Part shown: positions 15,769 to 21,388 of the stretch, piece after piece
Layout: each line of letters opens with the position of its first letter
How positions within the stretch are numbered: position 1 is the stretch's first letter
Source: Candidatus Woesearchaeota archaeon
GTDB taxonomy: Archaea; Nanobdellota; Nanobdellia; Woesearchaeales; JACJVW01
Direction of reading: 5' to 3'
NCBI GenBank assembly: GCA_020637435.1
Contig: JACJVW010000003.1
Coordinates: 4,787-68,786, forward strand
Length of the DNA stretch: 64,000 nucleotides
Program-made: the position numbers and the translations under genes
Notes under the pieces: model-generated
The model's database searches: none
What the model saw: the letters and a program-made list of their open reading frames with translations, nothing else
What the model was told of the DNA's origin: nothing

Positions 15769-16614
15769 ATGCACGGCGTGTCTTACCGGTTCAATCACTT
15801 GCTGGCCAGAGCAGAGAGTTTTGTCAAAACTTCCATCTCAGTAGAAAATTCAGGTTATCTGGCAATATTTGACAGGACTCTTGATCTGATCCTGAAGAAG
15901 CTTACTGACGCTTATTTTGAGAGCTCCAATTACTTGGATTGGGTTGTGGATGAGGATCGAGAACGTATTGATCTTATCTTTACTGACGGTATGTACGCAG
16001 AGCACAAAGAAGTGGGACCTTTTTGGCATCAGATACATATACCTATCTCCTATCTTGAGGATATGGAACATCTTGACGCTGCACTGCACGCAGAGTCCAG
16101 ACATGCGATCCACCATAATCTGCACCATGACCGGGGTGTCAGTTTCAAACACTCGGCAAGTAAGGCAGGCACGATCATAAGCGAAACTGTCCATCAAGGT
16201 ACGGATTTTCCGCTTACTATCCCTGATCGGTTCGGCAATGATTTTGATTTTGTCCAGGGTGATGTCCCATACCACTGCAGCGCTTATATTCTGGGGCAGC
16301 TTTCTCCTCAACCTCTTGAAAGACAGATTCAGGTGCAATGGCTTGCACGACAGACGATACGGGAACATAAGGTTGACTCTGATCTGTATCGGCTTACCCT
16401 ATCAGAAAGGGAATTCGATCCTTTGCAGGCTGCTTTCGATTTTCATCGTGGTCGCAGGGATCCTCTACGCACATATGCGTATAAGGAGTATCCATTTGAG
16501 GGATGTAAATTTGAAGGAATGAAGAAAAATTATTATGCTTCTCAGCTTGATTACATTCTATTGCGTCTTGCTACATCATCCATTGATGCATTGCATAAAG
16601 AGATCAGAGTTTGA
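15769..16614 (+). CDS. hypothetical protein
   Basis: 281-aa ORF, no recognisable motif; start uncertain. Confidence 0.55.
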   Translation: MHGVSYRFNHLLARAESFVKTSISVENSGYLAIFDRTLDLILKKLTDAYFESSNYLDWVVDEDRERIDLIFTDGMYAEHKEVGPFWHQIHIPISYLEDMEHLDAALHAESRHAIHHNLHHDRGVSFKHSASKAGTIISETVHQGTDFPLTIPDRFGNDFDFVQGDVPYHCSAYILGQLSPQPLERQIQVQWLARQTIREHKVDSDLYRLTLSEREFDPLQAAFDFHRGRRDPLRTYAYKEYPFEGCKFEGMKKNYYASQLDYILLRLATSSIDALHKEIRV

Positions 16615-17536
16615 ACTGCTCATGCCCTTCATACACGCGCATAGCCCCATCAACATCCCAGCCGCCGTACGTGATGGCCGAAATTGCGTCACAGAGCCTG
16701 ATAGCCTCATCGAGCGGTCGCTGATGTACGTTCCTTCCCGTGGCATTGCCCTTGCCGCCTGCGTAATAGATCTGGTCATGTACGTCCTGAAGGAAATCCC
16801 TGACTCCTTTTTTTGAGCCGCCTGCGCAGACAACGCCTGTATTGCCTGCCGCTTTGATTGCTTCTTTGAACATTTCCCTTGAGTCAAAGCCGTATTTGCT
16901 TGGGTAGTTTACTTTGACGAAATCGGAACCAAGGCACAGAGCTGTTCCGCACGCGCCCGCGATGATATGCGGATCCTTCTCGAAGAGTACCGATTTGCCT
17001 CGTGGATATATCCATAGGACTGTGAGCAGTCCATGCTTGTGAGCTTCACTGATAAGCCGTCCTGCTTCTGTAAGCATATCTGCTTCGTATTCAGATCCAA
17101 GATAGAGTGTGTAGCCTACTGCAAGAACTCGAAGTCCTGATTCTTTCTTGAATCTTACAACATCATCCACGGTCCAAATCTGTCTGGAGACGGGGTCTCT
17201 TTGTTTAGTCTCGACGAGATTGGTCTTAGAGTTAAGCTTGACGAGGTAGCCTATTCCTGGGTATTGTCTTCCGTACCTTGCTATGAGGCCCATCTGTGCC
17301 GCAAAGCAGCCAACGGTGCCGTGATATGCTATCTTAAAGAGGTGTTCGGGATCACTGTCTTCGTCTGCTATTCCCTGGCCGTAGAAATCACTATTAAGGT
17401 GCTCTATCTTCTGGTCACCTGCGAATAGCACCAGTTTTCCTGTGCTTCTGGTCAGTGAGAGAAAGTTCGCGACATACTCATCATGCATGCTGGATGGTAC
17501 ATCAAGCGGAATTGAAACGTCATGTTTAGTAAGCAT
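16604..17536 (-). CDS. class I fructose-bisphosphate aldolase (DhnA family)
   Basis: FAGDQKIEH, YLVKLNSKT, VLWIYPRG, GSDFVKVNYP (Schiff-base Lys), GRNVHQR. Confidence 0.92.
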   Translation of the reverse strand: MLTKHDVSIPLDVPSSMHDEYVANFLSLTRSTGKLVLFAGDQKIEHLNSDFYGQGIADEDSDPEHLFKIAYHGTVGCFAAQMGLIARYGRQYPGIGYLVKLNSKTNLVETKQRDPVSRQIWTVDDVVRFKKESGLRVLAVGYTLYLGSEYEADMLTEAGRLISEAHKHGLLTVLWIYPRGKSVLFEKDPHIIAGACGTALCLGSDFVKVNYPSKYGFDSREMFKEAIKAAGNTGVVCAGGSKKGVRDFLQDVHDQIYYAGGKGNATGRNVHQRPLDEAIRLCDAISAITYGGWDVDGAMRVYEGHEQFKL

Positions 17537-17672
17537 ACTTGTAACCCCCTTTTTAGAGTCAAAAGGGTATATGTACCTTATAAATATTTCCTTCTTGAAA
17601 GCTTTGGTTTTACCACAATTTAGCTTTGGGATACGTCATGACGCTTCTCTCTATAATTCTTAATAAAATAAT

Positions 17673-18527
17673 CTAAGTTGGGACATTTACCATCTTCAAA
17701 CCTTCATCATGAGGTATGCTTCTCCTGTTTAGGTAGGGTGTTAACGCATCGAGTTCATAAGGCTTTATCATCTGCTGGCCATCACAGACACGTTCGCCTT
17801 TGTAGCAGTAGTCGGGGTCGGTATGCACTTCTATCATCACGCCGTCTGCTCCACGTTCTAGTCCACGGATGGCATAGTCGATGACCAGTTCTCGTTTGCC
17901 GGTCGTGTGACTTGGGTCATAGATTAGCGGATATCCAGCGTCTTTAATCTGCGCTATAGCGTCCATATCCGGTTTGAATCTTGTGGTCGTGCTCGTATCC
18001 TTCTGTTCTCCGCGCAAGCATAGCACGATATTGTTGTTGCCGAATTGCGTCAGATATCCTATGCTGTCAAGGTATTGTTGTACAGATAGTCCCAAGGGTC
18101 TCTTGAAGAGGATGGGTTTGTTCCCCGCCTGCGCTGTCTGGTAGCCTACTTCACTGAGGAAGTCTTGTTGTCCGCTGCGCGCTCCTATCTGTATCATATC
18201 TGCTGTAGCTATAACTGATTCCAAAACATCGATGCGCTTTCCATCAGGAGTTCTTCTTGTGACTCCTGTGGCTTCGGTTACAATCGGTATGCCCAGTTTT
18301 TCTCGCATAGCGGCCATACGTTCGAGTCCCATTAGTTCGTCGCCCTGGAATGTGCCTGGGCTGCTTCTTGGTTTGAATGCACCGCCTCTTGCGATGTGCG
18401 TACCGTACCGCATCGCTTCTCCTACTATCTCTGTGTAACGATCATCGACAGCGCATGGTCCTGCGATAAGCACTTTAGCGTTACCTATCTCGATGTTCTG
18501 TATGTTCACTATGTTTCTTACTACCAT
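17673..18527 (-). CDS. aroF: 3-deoxy-D-arabino-heptulosonate 7-phosphate (DAHP) synthase, class I-beta, no regulatory domain
   Basis: IAGPCAV, RGGAFKPRSSP, IQIGARS, DPSHTTG, ADGVMIEVH..P...DG.Q; start taken at ATG 18527 behind a GGAGG SD (alternative 18563). Confidence 0.9.
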   Translation of the reverse strand: MVVRNIVNIQNIEIGNAKVLIAGPCAVDDRYTEIVGEAMRYGTHIARGGAFKPRSSPGTFQGDELMGLERMAAMREKLGIPIVTEATGVTRRTPDGKRIDVLESVIATADMIQIGARSGQQDFLSEVGYQTAQAGNKPILFKRPLGLSVQQYLDSIGYLTQFGNNNIVLCLRGEQKDTSTTTRFKPDMDAIAQIKDAGYPLIYDPSHTTGKRELVIDYAIRGLERGADGVMIEVHTDPDYCYKGERVCDGQQMIKPYELDALTPYLNRRSIPHDEGLKMVNVPT

Positions 18528-18596
18528 TCTTCCTCCTGCTAGGACCGTCGGCAGTTTATACATCAAAAGAAAACGTCTGGTCCCAGGCTTGTCGCT

Positions 18597-18662
18597 CTAG
18601 TACCAGTAAAAAAAGCCAAAGCTAAATCCAAACATCTGCTGTCCGGTGTTCTGGCCTTTCAT
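18597..18662 (-). CDS. aromatic-residue-rich leader peptide MKGQNTGQQMFGFSFGFFYWY
   Basis: Manual translation; 8 of the last 11 codons are Phe, Tyr or Trp; directly upstream of DAHP synthase. Confidence 0.75.
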   Translation of the reverse strand: MKGQNTGQQMFGFSFGFFYWY

Positions 18663-18686
18663 TATGTGATTATTGGGGAGAACACC

Positions 18687-18694
18687 TATATAAA
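18687..18694 (-). promoter_or_regulatory. TATA box of the leader-DAHP synthase transcript
   Basis: TTTATATA on the minus strand about 25 nt before the leader ATG. Confidence 0.6.
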
Positions 18695-18712
18695 ATTTAT
18701 TAAAAAAAGTAG

Positions 18713-18970
18713 TCAGTCATCACCAAGTCGGTCAGCGAAGGCGATAGTCTCCATGACTCTCTTGATCTTTATCCGTACTTTTTCTCCTACTTCTGTATTC
18801 TGTACGAACACAGTGTATCCTTCGACTTTTACGATACCGTCGCCTTTCTTTCCGATATCTTCTATGGTGACATCGAATTCCTGTCCTTTTTGGATGCTTG
18901 TGACTTGGCTTCTCCTTTGAGAACCTGAATCCTGTCTTCTGTTGTCAGTTGCATATTGATCTCTTTCCAT
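18713..18970 (-). CDS. TRAM-domain RNA-binding (cold-shock-like) protein
   Basis: GQEFDVTIEDIGKKGDGIVKVEGYTVFV...VGEKVRIKI; start uncertain (18970-19012). Confidence 0.92.
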   Translation of the reverse strand: MERDQYATDNRRQDSGSQRRSQVTSIQKGQEFDVTIEDIGKKGDGIVKVEGYTVFVQNTEVGEKVRIKIKRVMETIAFADRLGDD

Positions 18971-19106
18971 CCTTCTTCTTTCCATGAGGATCACATATGC
19001 AGAATACTTCACAGGTTAATAAACAAATCGGCTGTTTACTTTGAGGATTCTTGCGTACATGGACGAAGTGGATTCATTGTTCAATATACTGGTCTTAGAC
19101 AAGACC

Positions 19107-19751
19107 TTAATTCTGCGAAGTTGGTGCGGGTAGAACGATCTCCGGATATCGTACGGCATTCTTCATGAGCATGACAAGTTCAGGAAGCACCTTGGTGGCA
19201 TACTTCTTACCCCTTATTCCAAATTCATCGAATACTTCCCTAATCATATCCGTTACTTCACTCTTTGTCGCAGGGTATCTGTCCGTACCTGCCAGAAACT
19301 GTGCCCCTGGCTTCCACGCATGGGTGAATACATACTCCTGATCGCTCATGTAGGTCGCTGATATGGTTCCATCCGGGATAAGCAGGGTTGTCGCGACCTG
19401 GGTGAGGCTGTGCGCATTGCCTTCACCATTGCGCTCAAGACGCATCGCAAAAACACCCCTTGTGCACTCTACCATAGTAGGACTTAGGACATCCAGGTCA
19501 ACTTTGCCGACGACGAGTTCAAGCCCTTTGTGCTGACAATCCATGGGATCGTACAGGGTCCGCATAGCGTCGACTCTATACCCATTGCATAGCCTGTGCG
19601 TCGATGATTCAAACAGATGCCTTTCATGGTAATGCAAAAGAAGATTGTCCACTTGTGTCTCTTCGATATTCGAGACTTCTTCAAGCTGTTTGATGAGTCG
19701 AATGTACATGCTTCGCGGGTCGTCCATAGTTTTCTGGAGTTGCCACGGCAT
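19107..19751 (-). CDS. hypothetical protein
   Basis: 214-aa ORF, no motif recognised. Confidence 0.55.
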   Translation of the reverse strand: MPWQLQKTMDDPRSMYIRLIKQLEEVSNIEETQVDNLLLHYHERHLFESSTHRLCNGYRVDAMRTLYDPMDCQHKGLELVVGKVDLDVLSPTMVECTRGVFAMRLERNGEGNAHSLTQVATTLLIPDGTISATYMSDQEYVFTHAWKPGAQFLAGTDRYPATKSEVTDMIREVFDEFGIRGKKYATKVLPELVMLMKNAVRYPEIVLPAPTSQN

Positions 19752-19759
19752 TTATATGT

Positions 19760-21388
19760 TTATGTTAGCAGAAGGTTGAGGTGCATAGCTTTGTTGTCGA
19801 TAAATTCAGGCAGATCTCTACGGTATTTCCATGCCATAAGTCTGAACAACGGTGTCGCAAGGGTCACAAAGAAGAGCTTGTCGATTAAACGATATGCAGA
19901 TTGTTTTCTCAGTATTAACATAAGGATCATTTTCTTTAACCAGGTGGATTTCTGATTCATGTCAATCGTGAATGTGTAGAATCCCGAAAAGCGTTCCTGG
20001 TAGGTTGCAATATTCTCGATGAGCGACTTTTCTGAAGTCTGTCGAGCCAGTACTTTTCGAAGTTCATAGAATAGCTTTAGGGTCTCTGTAAGAAAATCGA
20101 TCTGCTCTATGCCTGCTTGTGCACCAAGTGTGCGCAAAGTCAAAAATTCACCTTCATCTATCTGTGGACTGCTCTTGAACGCAACCTGGTAGTATGCTTT
20201 GATGAACGGACTAATGGTCACATTGTCCCAGAACATCCAAACTACCGGGGGGACTCGTGATCTTCTGAAGTAGAAGGGTTTTCCTCCGCTGTAGATAAGA
20301 CGATGATACAGGCTATTGTATTCACGCAGGAAAGCCACCATATCTTTTCCCATGGTTTGCCTGATTATCTGTTCAGGTAACGCATGATCTTTGAATATTC
20401 TTAGTGCTGCGATGGTGTTGAGTTCATTCCAGGGTGAACTGTTTTTGAGGAATGTAATGTCGTTGTACTTTGACCAACCCCCTGTCTGACACCAGACGGA
20501 AAGGCCGACCAGGTTGTGCATATTTTCCAATTTTTCTTTGTATTTGAAGTAATCCCATCCCACAAAGTAAGGATTAGTTCCAAATCCGTCACGTTCTCTT
20601 CTGGTCTGCAACTCGATCATCATCCGGAGCTCTGGATTGTGGAAGAAGAGCGGGTTGAGTTCAAGGTTTGAGAAAAAATCAGTATCGCCATATTTCATCG
20701 AAACGATAAGATGGTCACTTCTGATACCTTGAAACACTTTATCGAATGTTCTCTTATTCCAGATCAGGTCACCTATCTCGTAGGCCCCGACTGTCCATGT
20801 CCTGAAGATCAGTTCCTTTTCGGCTTCTTCTACGACGAGTAGCAATTCTTTAAGCAGGACGTTCGCTTCTTTGGCTGTGCGTAGGGTAAGCGTGCTGTGG
20901 AAATCCCCTTTTACATCGATTCCGTCTGATTCTCCTATCCGAAGATTGATGCCGTCTATCGGGTATTCATTGCAGACTTTTTTCACTGCTATCTTGAGGA
21001 GACTATGAAGCTCCTTTGACTCTCCGCCGGTATGTTGTTCGATACTCGGATTATTGAACATGACATCGCTATTGATGAAGACATACATGCCGGCATCTTT
21101 AGCCATCCTTATGAGTCGTGAGTAGTACTCTTTGTACACCTCTATCTTTGACTTGGTCTGTTCATCATAGAAAGGAAATGTTACCATGTGCGCAAGATCA
21201 TCAAGAGTTAGTGTGTTGTAGCCGATATCCCTGATCCTACTTAGATAAGTGGTGAACTGTCTGACTACCTTATTCATATTCCTTTCTATGTCCCGTTCTA
21301 GTTCGAAGAACGGAATCTTGGACCAGTTTACGGTGCCTTTCGGTTCAAGGAAGAAAGGACCAATACAATCTATGGCGTAATACTCCAT
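19760..21388 (-). CDS. conserved hypothetical protein, possible glycoside-hydrolase-like TIM barrel
   Basis: 542 aa; LRIGESDG.D, IFRTWTVGA, MKY..TDFF and WCQTGGW patterns; function not established. Confidence 0.6.
   Translation of the reverse strand: MEYYAIDCIGPFFLEPKGTVNWSKIPFFELERDIERNMNKVVRQFTTYLSRIRDIGYNTLTLDDLAHMVTFPFYDEQTKSKIEVYKEYYSRLIRMAKDAGMYVFINSDVMFNNPSIEQHTGGESKELHSLLKIAVKKVCNEYPIDGINLRIGESDGIDVKGDFHSTLTLRTAKEANVLLKELLLVVEEAEKELIFRTWTVGAYEIGDLIWNKRTFDKVFQGIRSDHLIVSMKYGDTDFFSNLELNPLFFHNPELRMMIELQTRRERDGFGTNPYFVGWDYFKYKEKLENMHNLVGLSVWCQTGGWSKYNDITFLKNSSPWNELNTIAALRIFKDHALPEQIIRQTMGKDMVAFLREYNSLYHRLIYSGGKPFYFRRSRVPPVVWMFWDNVTISPFIKAYYQVAFKSSPQIDEGEFLTLRTLGAQAGIEQIDFLTETLKLFYELRKVLARQTSEKSLIENIATYQERFSGFYTFTIDMNQKSTWLKKMILMLILRKQSAYRLIDKLFFVTLATPLFRLMAWKYRRDLPEFIDNKAMHLNLLLT

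Follow-up and report, generated by a model that had tools for sequence, protein, structure and literature searches.

Can an archaeon let its ribosomes tell the gene of a biosynthetic enzyme how well the cell is supplied with aromatic amino acids? The question is raised by a short upstream open reading frame (uORF) in a 64,000-nucleotide stretch of DNA from a Candidatus Woesearchaeota archaeon (contig JACJVW010000003.1 of assembly GCA_020637435.1, positions 4,787 to 68,786), which we call the window. The window lies on contig 3 of a 1.13-Mb assembly that is 75% complete. The uORF, at 18662-18597 in window coordinates, precedes a gene for DAHP synthase (DAHPS) and ends in a run of aromatic codons; like all features of the locus described below, it is read from the minus strand. 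A preliminary description, made from the sequence alone, had taken it for an attenuator with a switching RNA helix. Comparison among relatives strongly supports the core of that reading, an aromatic leader ORF that regulates DAHPS, while the switch helix is unsupported thermodynamically. In our assessment, the uORF is probably a cis-acting regulatory leader ORF, whose translating ribosomes would report the levels of charged Phe-, Tyr- and Trp-tRNA and thereby set DAHPS expression.

An aromatic leader ORF recurs before DAHP synthase

The uORF consists of 21 codons followed by TAG (18599-18597) and encodes MKGQNTGQQMFGFSFGFFYWY. It is read from the same strand as DAHPS, with 69 nt separating it from the DAHPS ATG, and its codons 11-21 (18632-18600), the putative aromatic sensor tail, hold five Phe, two Tyr and one Trp, just as first described. 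How unusual is such a tail? Among 13,980 ATG ORFs of 10-80 codons, genome-wide, only two contain at least eight aromatic residues within any 11 consecutive ones. When the 400-nt region upstream of each gene was scored by whichever of its ATG uORFs had the most aromatic residues in the last ten codons, the DAHPS region ranked first of 979 genes; only three regions scored 6 or more, and those other than the DAHPS region look like chance. Because very many windows were scanned, a lone hit is insufficient: a single aromatic ORF is unconvincing, and it is the recurrence in relatives that settles the matter against chance.

DAHPS is encoded in 93 of 401 genomes of the same order, and the upstream DNA of 105 DAHPS genes was compared. 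A gene was counted as having a leader if it was preceded by a same-strand ATG uORF of 8-35 codons with at least six aromatic residues (Phe, Tyr or Trp) among the last ten. Such a uORF precedes 36 of the 105 genes (score 6-8) in 24 GTDB families, including the window, whose uORF has seven aromatic codons in the last ten. The score distribution is bimodal, with the other 69 regions reaching at most 5 and a mode of 1-2. None of the 105 reverse-complemented regions reached 6, and neither did any of 45 regions upstream of Cdc48-type genes from the same genomes; 200 dinucleotide shuffles per region gave a mean of about 1.8, with p ≤ 0.01 for every positive. Fisher tests of DAHPS against the controls returned p = 4e-7 to 5e-36, for loci that are phylogenetically non-independent. 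The preliminary description had named absence from orthologues as a finding that would refute it, and the comparison gave the opposite result (36/105, against 0/45 and 3/979 in controls). Outside this order, seven DAHPS genes of the same taxonomic class gave no clear case (0/7); in the sample examined, the leaders are thus centred on this order.

Could the uORF nonetheless be an accident of a T-rich spacer, in which TTT, TAC and TGG happen to read as aromatic codons, with DAHPS transcribed from its own promoter at TGTATAAA (18562-18555)? Isolated matches are to be expected among the very many windows scanned, the nearest DAHPS homologue lacks the uORF, and a second TATA-like box is indeed present. 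However, chance does not account for 36 positives among 105 regions when the controls give 0/45, 0/105 and 3/979 and the shuffles p ≤ 0.01, nor for the TATA distance and the stop-codon hairpin that are common to the class, nor for the enrichment of Trp codons. The second TATA box is itself 4-5 nt off the mode of the genome, and a transcript started from it would exclude the conserved-type Shine-Dalgarno (SD) sequence. We regard a chance ORF as very unlikely.

The peptides are too divergent to align (MRKSAKTNLNNLARFYFYFWY, MKRPVVSGSASDSFSFYFWY, MNSNFGFYSGFYYFF, MKAGNNSGKLNSGSFNLAYSFYYFSY; in a genus of the same family, ...FISFRFFW and ...YFFRYFHFWRQ). What is kept is a design, in which a polar N-terminal part gives way to a run of Phe, Tyr and Trp that extends to the stop. 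To judge by these tails, selection is on composition and not on sequence. Trp, which has a single codon, lies within the last four residues of 13 of the 36 leaders, and TGG is enriched about 8-fold in the tails over its codon frequency of about 1%; stop-proximal Trp, by this count, is beyond what T-richness explains. In frame, 65% of tail codons are aromatic, compared with 17-20% in the other two frames, a difference that is partly biased because the uORFs were chosen by frame.

The same divergence bears on a second explanation, in which the product is a trans-acting aromatic micropeptide that binds a membrane or an enzyme and modulates DAHPS instead of sensing tRNA charge. This would suit an ORF that is kept as an ORF beside DAHPS in many families, and some bacterial leader peptides do act in trans, peTrpL among them (PMC7298713). 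Yet only tail composition and position are conserved here, while peptide sequence and length (8-35 aa) vary, and a membrane helix would need a longer hydrophobic stretch. In every case the tail adjoins the stop and an RNA hairpin, which points to a constraint on RNA and ribosome, not on a protein. A micropeptide of this kind seems to us highly improbable.

The leaders share a common architecture

Beyond the tail, the leaders have several features in common. A TTTAWA box lies at -30 to -33 from the uORF ATG in 20 of the 36 leaders (at -32 in the window), a spacing that implies a leaderless uORF. The 60-nt fold at the uORF stop has a mean z of -1.59, with 13 of 32 leaders below -2, compared with a mean of 0.08 and 3 of 53 below -2 for folds at the stops of arbitrary uORFs at negative loci (Mann-Whitney p = 9e-7); for the uORF described here, z is -2.12. 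T-runs occur 15-60 nt past the uORF stop in 13/32 leaders and 7/53 controls (p = 0.007), TTTTCC or TTTTC is enriched past the stop among leaders, and a T run of at least five lies inside the aromatic tail in 19/32. Masking the tail raises the predicted accessibility of the ribosome-binding site (RBS) class-wide from 0.40 to 0.455 (Wilcoxon p = 0.002; control mask, p = 0.49). Taken element by element, the window leader has, as predicted from its sequence, everything that belongs to the common plan. Because the aromatic codons and the hairpin are both conserved against the stop, the signal would be the position of the ribosome at the end of the uORF.

All these T-rich segments invite a third explanation: a non-coding, pyrimidine-rich RNA or DNA element, be it a U-tract terminator, a pause site or a protein-binding site, in which the reading frame is incidental. 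The T7 run in the tail of the window uORF is identical to the terminator 9-mer past the upstream TRAM-domain gene, and runs of at least five T in 19 of 32 tails would fit a genome in which oligo-T acts as a terminator. An incidental frame, however, should not start at leaderless distance from a TATA box in 20/36 leaders, nor always close 0-2 codons from the aromatic run. The uORF frame is 3-4 times richer in aromatic codons than the other frames (partly biased by frame selection), and the roughly 8-fold excess of TGG over its codon frequency of about 1% likewise speaks for coding. That the frame means nothing is, in our view, very improbable.

Some leaders carry features of their own. In four of them, from four families (L239, L243, L250, L260), two interleaved complementary pairs follow the stop in the order 1-2-1'-2'; helix 1 begins at the stop, and in 8 of its 11 pairs both partners have changed (covariation within this one subgroup), and helix 2 (AAATCTTAAGG / CTTAAGATTT) is conserved in sequence. 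Judged by its layout, this arrangement would be either a pseudoknot or a two-state switch. Tandem aromatic uORFs precede DAHPS in L007, L008 and L010, which belong to the same family as the window (genus g2), and also in L003 and L270. In genus g2, a leaderless 13-codon uORF1 (MPKRQFISFRFFW) is followed by a hairpin (GTGCC-GCT-GGCAC), a U-tract (TCATTTTCTC) and uORF2, which is SD-led, ends in YFFRYFHFWRQ 33 nt before the DAHPS ATG and has no hairpin after it. Five leaders of family f59 (L201, L202, L254, L266, L274) share a conserved post-stop element, CCGC(T)GAAA-N-TTGGCATACTAAGGCGGGC, which is more conserved than a plain hairpin requires and may be a protein- or ligand-binding motif. Finally, CAT[CT]GT(T) stands right after the stop hairpin, 25-38 nt past the stop, in about 12 of the 36 leaders (e.g. 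L181, L205, L216, L244) and often continues into a T-tract (CATCGTTTTTCT); a related sequence, AGACGTTTTCTTTT, is present in the window. We rejected CAT[CT]GTT as an anti-SD or anti-start element: no pairing partner recurs from leader to leader, the motif is confined to about 12/36 leaders, and the window leader lacks it.

Promoter and RNA folds of the window leader

How would such a leader be transcribed and folded? Upstream of it lies a gene identified by domain search as encoding a TRAM-domain protein (19012-18713). Five nucleotides past its stop, a T7 run within CTTTTTTTA (18708-18702) is likely an archaeal oligo-T terminator that isolates the leader promoter. T5 runs are about 8-fold enriched within 20 nt after stop codons in this genome, which is consistent with oligo-T runs behaving as terminators here and with archaeal oligo-U termination. 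The promoter P1 (18701-18687) comprises a stretch resembling a transcription factor B recognition element, AATAAA (18701-18696), one T and the TATA box TTTATATA (18694-18687). The first base of TTTATATA is at -32 from the uORF ATG, with 24 nt between box and ATG (18662), in keeping with the TATA box about 25 nt upstream that had first been reported. In a genome-wide scan of start codons, TTTATA peaks at -31/-30 before leaderless-type starts and GGAGG at -12, so both start types, leaderless and SD-led, are used in this genome. The uORF fits the leaderless class because its TATA box at -32 matches the geometry of the genome; inspection of the sequence before it found no SD. The predicted transcription start site is at about 18664-18662, that is, at the AUG of the uORF. 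All five Phe codons of the uORF are TTT, the minority codon in the long ORFs of the genome (41%, against 59% TTC), and they create a T7 run at 18614-18608 within the Phe-Phe-Tyr codons.

Folding places an 11-bp hairpin, H2 (18606-18577), across the stop codon. Its 5' arm, CUGGU-A-CUAG (18606-18597), is made of the Trp, Tyr and stop codons, its loop is AGCGACAAGC, and its 3' arm is CUGG-G-ACCAG (18586-18577); the hairpin has a ΔG of -14.3 and a z of -2.41 against shuffles. The pairing of CTGGT (18606-18602) with ACCAG (18581-18577) in the preliminary description is therefore sound and turns out to be part of this larger hairpin. The downstream U-rich tract was also found where it had been described, at 18573-18565 (TTTTCTTTT): three nucleotides (ACG) past H2, the run UUUUCUUUU begins, a candidate attenuation point at which archaeal RNA polymerase may terminate or pause. 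The predicted folds give the 5' arm of H2 no upstream partner that could act as an antiterminator, and by this measure the leader departs from the classical bacterial attenuator.

A second hairpin covers the RBS (18555-18520). In it, ACUGCCG (18555-49) pairs with UGGUAGU (18526-20) and UCCU (18544-41) with AGGA (18534-31); alone it has a ΔG of -13.0, and it buries part of the DAHPS SD, GGAGG at 18536-18532 (-9 from the ATG), together with the AUG (18527-25). The SD had been described as lying in a small CCT/AGG hairpin; GGAGG is present and partly paired, and the structure that holds it is this larger one. Segment 3, GGTCCTAG (18546-18539), overlaps the anti-SD UCCU and is complementary over 8 bp, with one G-U, to CTGGGACC in the 3' arm of H2 (18586-79). 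The minimum-energy and centroid folds also contain a helix within the uORF, H1 (18660-18610), in which codons 1-4 from the G of AUG (18660-18650) pair with Phe-Gly-Phe-Phe codons (18620-18610) around an inner hairpin (18646-40/18634-28). Comparison with relatives gave no support for H1, an 11-bp helix that would close the 5' end of the completed leaderless mRNA and leave translation of the uORF to a co-transcriptional pioneer ribosome. The leader as a whole folds better than its shuffles (z -2.79).

A model for ribosome-mediated control

From these parts, we propose the following mechanism. Transcription would begin about 25 nt past the TATA box, at the uORF AUG, and give a leaderless mRNA, on which a pioneer ribosome would translate the uORF before RNA polymerase has left the leader. 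The T7 run in the Phe-Phe-Tyr codons may pause the polymerase and thus synchronise it with the ribosome. With aromatic aminoacyl-tRNA plentiful, the ribosome would reach TAG and depart, and H2 would form just before UUUUCUUUU; transcription would then stop or stall, and any read-through RNA would keep SD and AUG in the RBS hairpin, so that the gene is off. With aromatic aminoacyl-tRNA scarce, the ribosome would linger on the last aromatic codons and, once it occupies the final four or five, mask the 5' arm of H2; the polymerase would cross the U-tract, and the gene would be on. A second, translational output is conceivable: by pairing with 18546-39, the freed 3' arm (18586-79) could disrupt the RBS hairpin. 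The output step is one that we infer, whether the hairpin before the U-tract is masked, the RBS is unmasked or both occur; direct masking of the hairpin by the ribosome is the route we favour, because the regulatory codons themselves lie in H2.

The position of the aromatic residues at the extreme C-terminus, beside the stop, also recalls arrest peptides, which act there (TnaC, e.g. PMC8429421). Regulation could accordingly proceed by nascent-peptide arrest or slow termination, in response to free aromatic amino acids in the manner of TnaC or constitutively as a simple uORF brake, and not by tRNA charging. But arrest peptides are sequence-specific, and the peptides in question are highly variable; the enrichment is for exactly the three end products of the pathway; and sensing of tRNA charge at a DAHPS gene has a bacterial precedent. 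Arrest or slow termination thus appears quite unlikely, and we retain sensing of tRNA charge as our working model.

Points that weigh against the model

Several observations count against a leader that senses aromatic supply. Two-thirds of the order's DAHPS genes have no aromatic uORF, and the only closer homologue of the window DAHPS (59% identity, L016) is preceded by an 88-nt gap without one; all other homologues found in protein, metagenome-contig and genome-contig searches are at most 43% identical. The window leader has no sequence homologue, and therefore no covariation supports its own hairpins; a search of 16000-21000 with Rfam covariance models matched nothing at E<9, and the leader itself had no match. 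The second TATA-like box, TGTATAAA (18562-18555), could drive transcription independently of the uORF. It is possibly a weak internal promoter, P2, or chance: its TATAAA, at -33 relative to the DAHPS ATG, misses the genome mode of -29/-28 by 4-5 nt, and no such second box is conserved among relatives.

The folds, too, raise objections. A sigma-70/consensus terminator scan made no call at H2; archaeal termination rules differ from the bacterial ones. In equilibrium folding, masking leaves the predicted RBS accessibility of the window leader unchanged. The switch between CTGGGACC and GGTCCTAG in the preliminary description has its complementarity, as given above, and is energetically disfavoured: in the free leader the helix falls 12 kcal/mol short of the minimum-energy fold, and even with the 5' arm of H2 masked it trails the RBS hairpin by 3.5 kcal/mol. 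A kinetic route to it is possible, though it is disfavoured at equilibrium, because the polymerase reaches segment 3 earlier than the 3' strand of the RBS hairpin. Kinetics matter for direct masking as well, as a tightly coupled ribosome would mask the hairpin under plenty too, and the sign of the response would hinge on them.

The pathway itself poses the last difficulty. That DAHPS follows the uORF is confirmed, while the premise attached to it, that this is the first enzyme of a pathway leading to the three sensed amino acids, is weakened: searches of the 75%-complete assembly turned up no chorismate synthase, no type I DHQ synthase and no EPSP synthase. Neither chorismate synthase nor DHQ synthase was found in three same-family genomes that are 91-96% complete (EPSP synthase was searched for in the window genome only). 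These three genomes carry aromatic leaders before DAHPS, and because leader-bearing family members of such completeness share the gap, it is not due to incompleteness alone. Chorismate synthase was present in only 5 of 12 leader-bearing genomes tested. The persistence of the aromatic leader argues that expression of an orphan DAHPS may still be tied to aromatic supply.

DAHP synthase and its surroundings

The DAHPS gene (18527-17673) encodes a type I-beta enzyme of 284 aa that consists of the catalytic domain only, as identified with Pfam and NCBIfam: the product matches PF00793 with 124 bits and the NCBIfam DAHPS models at 2e-61, compared with 4e-15 for KDO8PS. Comparison with P0002, the 59%-identical homologue, backs the assigned start. 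Most DAHPS of the order begin (MII...) with an N-terminal extension of about 76 aa, an FXD/ACT-like regulatory domain (PF18152), which is absent here. We considered the leader as a substitute for this absent allosteric domain and rejected the idea, as most leader-bearing relatives retain the domain and there is no correlation.

After a gap of 136 nt, DAHPS is followed by a gene for a DhnA/DeoC-type class I aldolase (17536-16604). This gene has a TATA-like box and an SD (GGGGG) of its own, and its product matches the NCBIfam equivalog PRK06852 with 486 bits. Its assignment as ADH synthase was rejected, with 116 bits against a cut-off of 241. In other relatives, the genes after DAHPS are aroB, trpC, chorismate mutase or pheS; in L012 (genome G029), a pheS-like gene, for the alpha subunit of phenylalanyl-tRNA synthetase, lies 24 nt past a leader-preceded DAHPS and is an unusual operon partner. 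The window genome has prephenate dehydratase (C1:269262-270071), and no comparable leader was found before this gene, pheA, in the same genome. The orphan state, a DAHPS in a genome where searches found neither chorismate synthase nor type I DHQ synthase, is seen in the window genome (G000) and in G001-G003, G015, G146 and G233, all of which retain the aromatic leader. This raises the question of what role DAHPS plays in DPANN genomes without the rest of the pathway.

Comparison with known systems

Finally, we would like to place the leader into the context of known attenuators. Leader-peptide attenuation is a textbook bacterial mechanism that needs ribosomes close behind RNA polymerase. Archaea combine a eukaryote-like transcription machinery with prokaryote-like coupled translation, and their transcription terminates by oligo-U and factor-dependent routes, not by bacterial rules. 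Whether they put the coupling of transcription and translation to regulatory use is an open question, which the leader described here addresses; if the leaders form an archaeal class of ribosome-mediated attenuators, as considered below, they do, and the device would persist even in DPANN lineages that keep DAHPS without the rest of the shikimate pathway.

The enterobacterial leaders trpL, pheL and hisL, which follow the Yanofsky model, place a leader ORF with cognate codons, a hairpin and a U-run before the first structural gene. The window leader shares the cognate-codon ORF and the hairpin with its U-run, and ribosome position is the proposed signal here as it is there. The bacterial leaders, however, are built of four segments: segment 1 carries the regulatory codons, and 3:4 forms the terminator. 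Here, the hairpin before the U-tract contains the last codons themselves, and the sole alternative pairing leads to the RBS hairpin and not to a terminator. In pyrBI of E. coli, a terminator hairpin overlaps the leader ORF and is kept from forming by the translating ribosome, and U-tracts pause the polymerase and synchronise coupling. Masking of a leader-overlapping hairpin by the ribosome is what we propose here as well; the signal at pyrBI is UTP-dependent polymerase pausing, not the supply of aminoacyl-tRNA.

Leader-peptide attenuators are also known from actinobacteria (PMC1262725). In Corynebacterium glutamicum, the leader peptide aroR, with Phe-Tyr-Phe, lies upstream of the DAHPS gene aroF, and when the amino acid runs short, ribosomes stalled at the Phe/Tyr codons increase expression (Neshat et al. 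2014, as described in PMC11802643). The two systems are alike in having a short leader ORF with Phe/Tyr codons directly before a DAHPS gene. They differ in nearly every component: aroR-aroF has a sigma-factor promoter, an intrinsic terminator with an antiterminator and only Phe-Tyr-Phe, whereas the window leader has a TATA/BRE promoter, a predicted leaderless start and eight aromatic codons including Trp, with sensor codons that adjoin the stop and form the 5' arm of the hairpin. It has no classical antiterminator and no sequence relationship to aroR-aroF.

In mycobacteria, ribosomes stalled on leaderless polycysteine small ORFs (sORFs) block an mRNA structure that sequesters the RBS, a translational output that has been shown, and the many loci governed by this one logic form a 'ribulon' (Canestrari et al., bioRxiv 10.1101/834739). 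There, as predicted here, a leaderless sORF with a run of cognate codons stands at the 5' end of the transcript. The mycobacterial sORFs are bacterial and sense cysteine; here, the U-tract past the hairpin suggests an added transcriptional component, and RBS unmasking is weakly supported in silico. For archaea, the full-text literature searched, which leaves most subscription journals outside its coverage, yielded no amino-acid-sensing leader peptide, and in a Haloferax small-proteome paper, sORFs of 5' untranslated regions are only called 'reminiscent' of leader peptides (PMC10117724).

The aromatic uORFs are currently not called as genes, so that their recognition would be a gain for annotation, and an element of about 140 nt found in 24 families makes a compact, testable object that can be moved into tractable archaea or in vitro systems. 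On the likenesses set out above, its closest functional analogue is aroR-aroF and its closest analogue in layout the mycobacterial polycysteine sORFs; by the same comparison, it resembles known attenuators in its putative working but belongs to no described family. Whether the leaders form the first archaeal class of ribosome-mediated, amino-acid-sensing attenuators with a design of their own, leaderless, with stop-adjacent sensor codons that double as oligo-U tract and hairpin 5' arm, with direct masking before a U-tract terminator as the main output and RBS unmasking as the second, seems to us evenly balanced. We have good, if not full, confidence in the core of the interpretation, a regulatory aromatic leader ORF: leader-peptide control, a kind of regulation so far established in bacteria only, would here operate in the archaeal setting of transcription and translation and with a stop-adjacent design.

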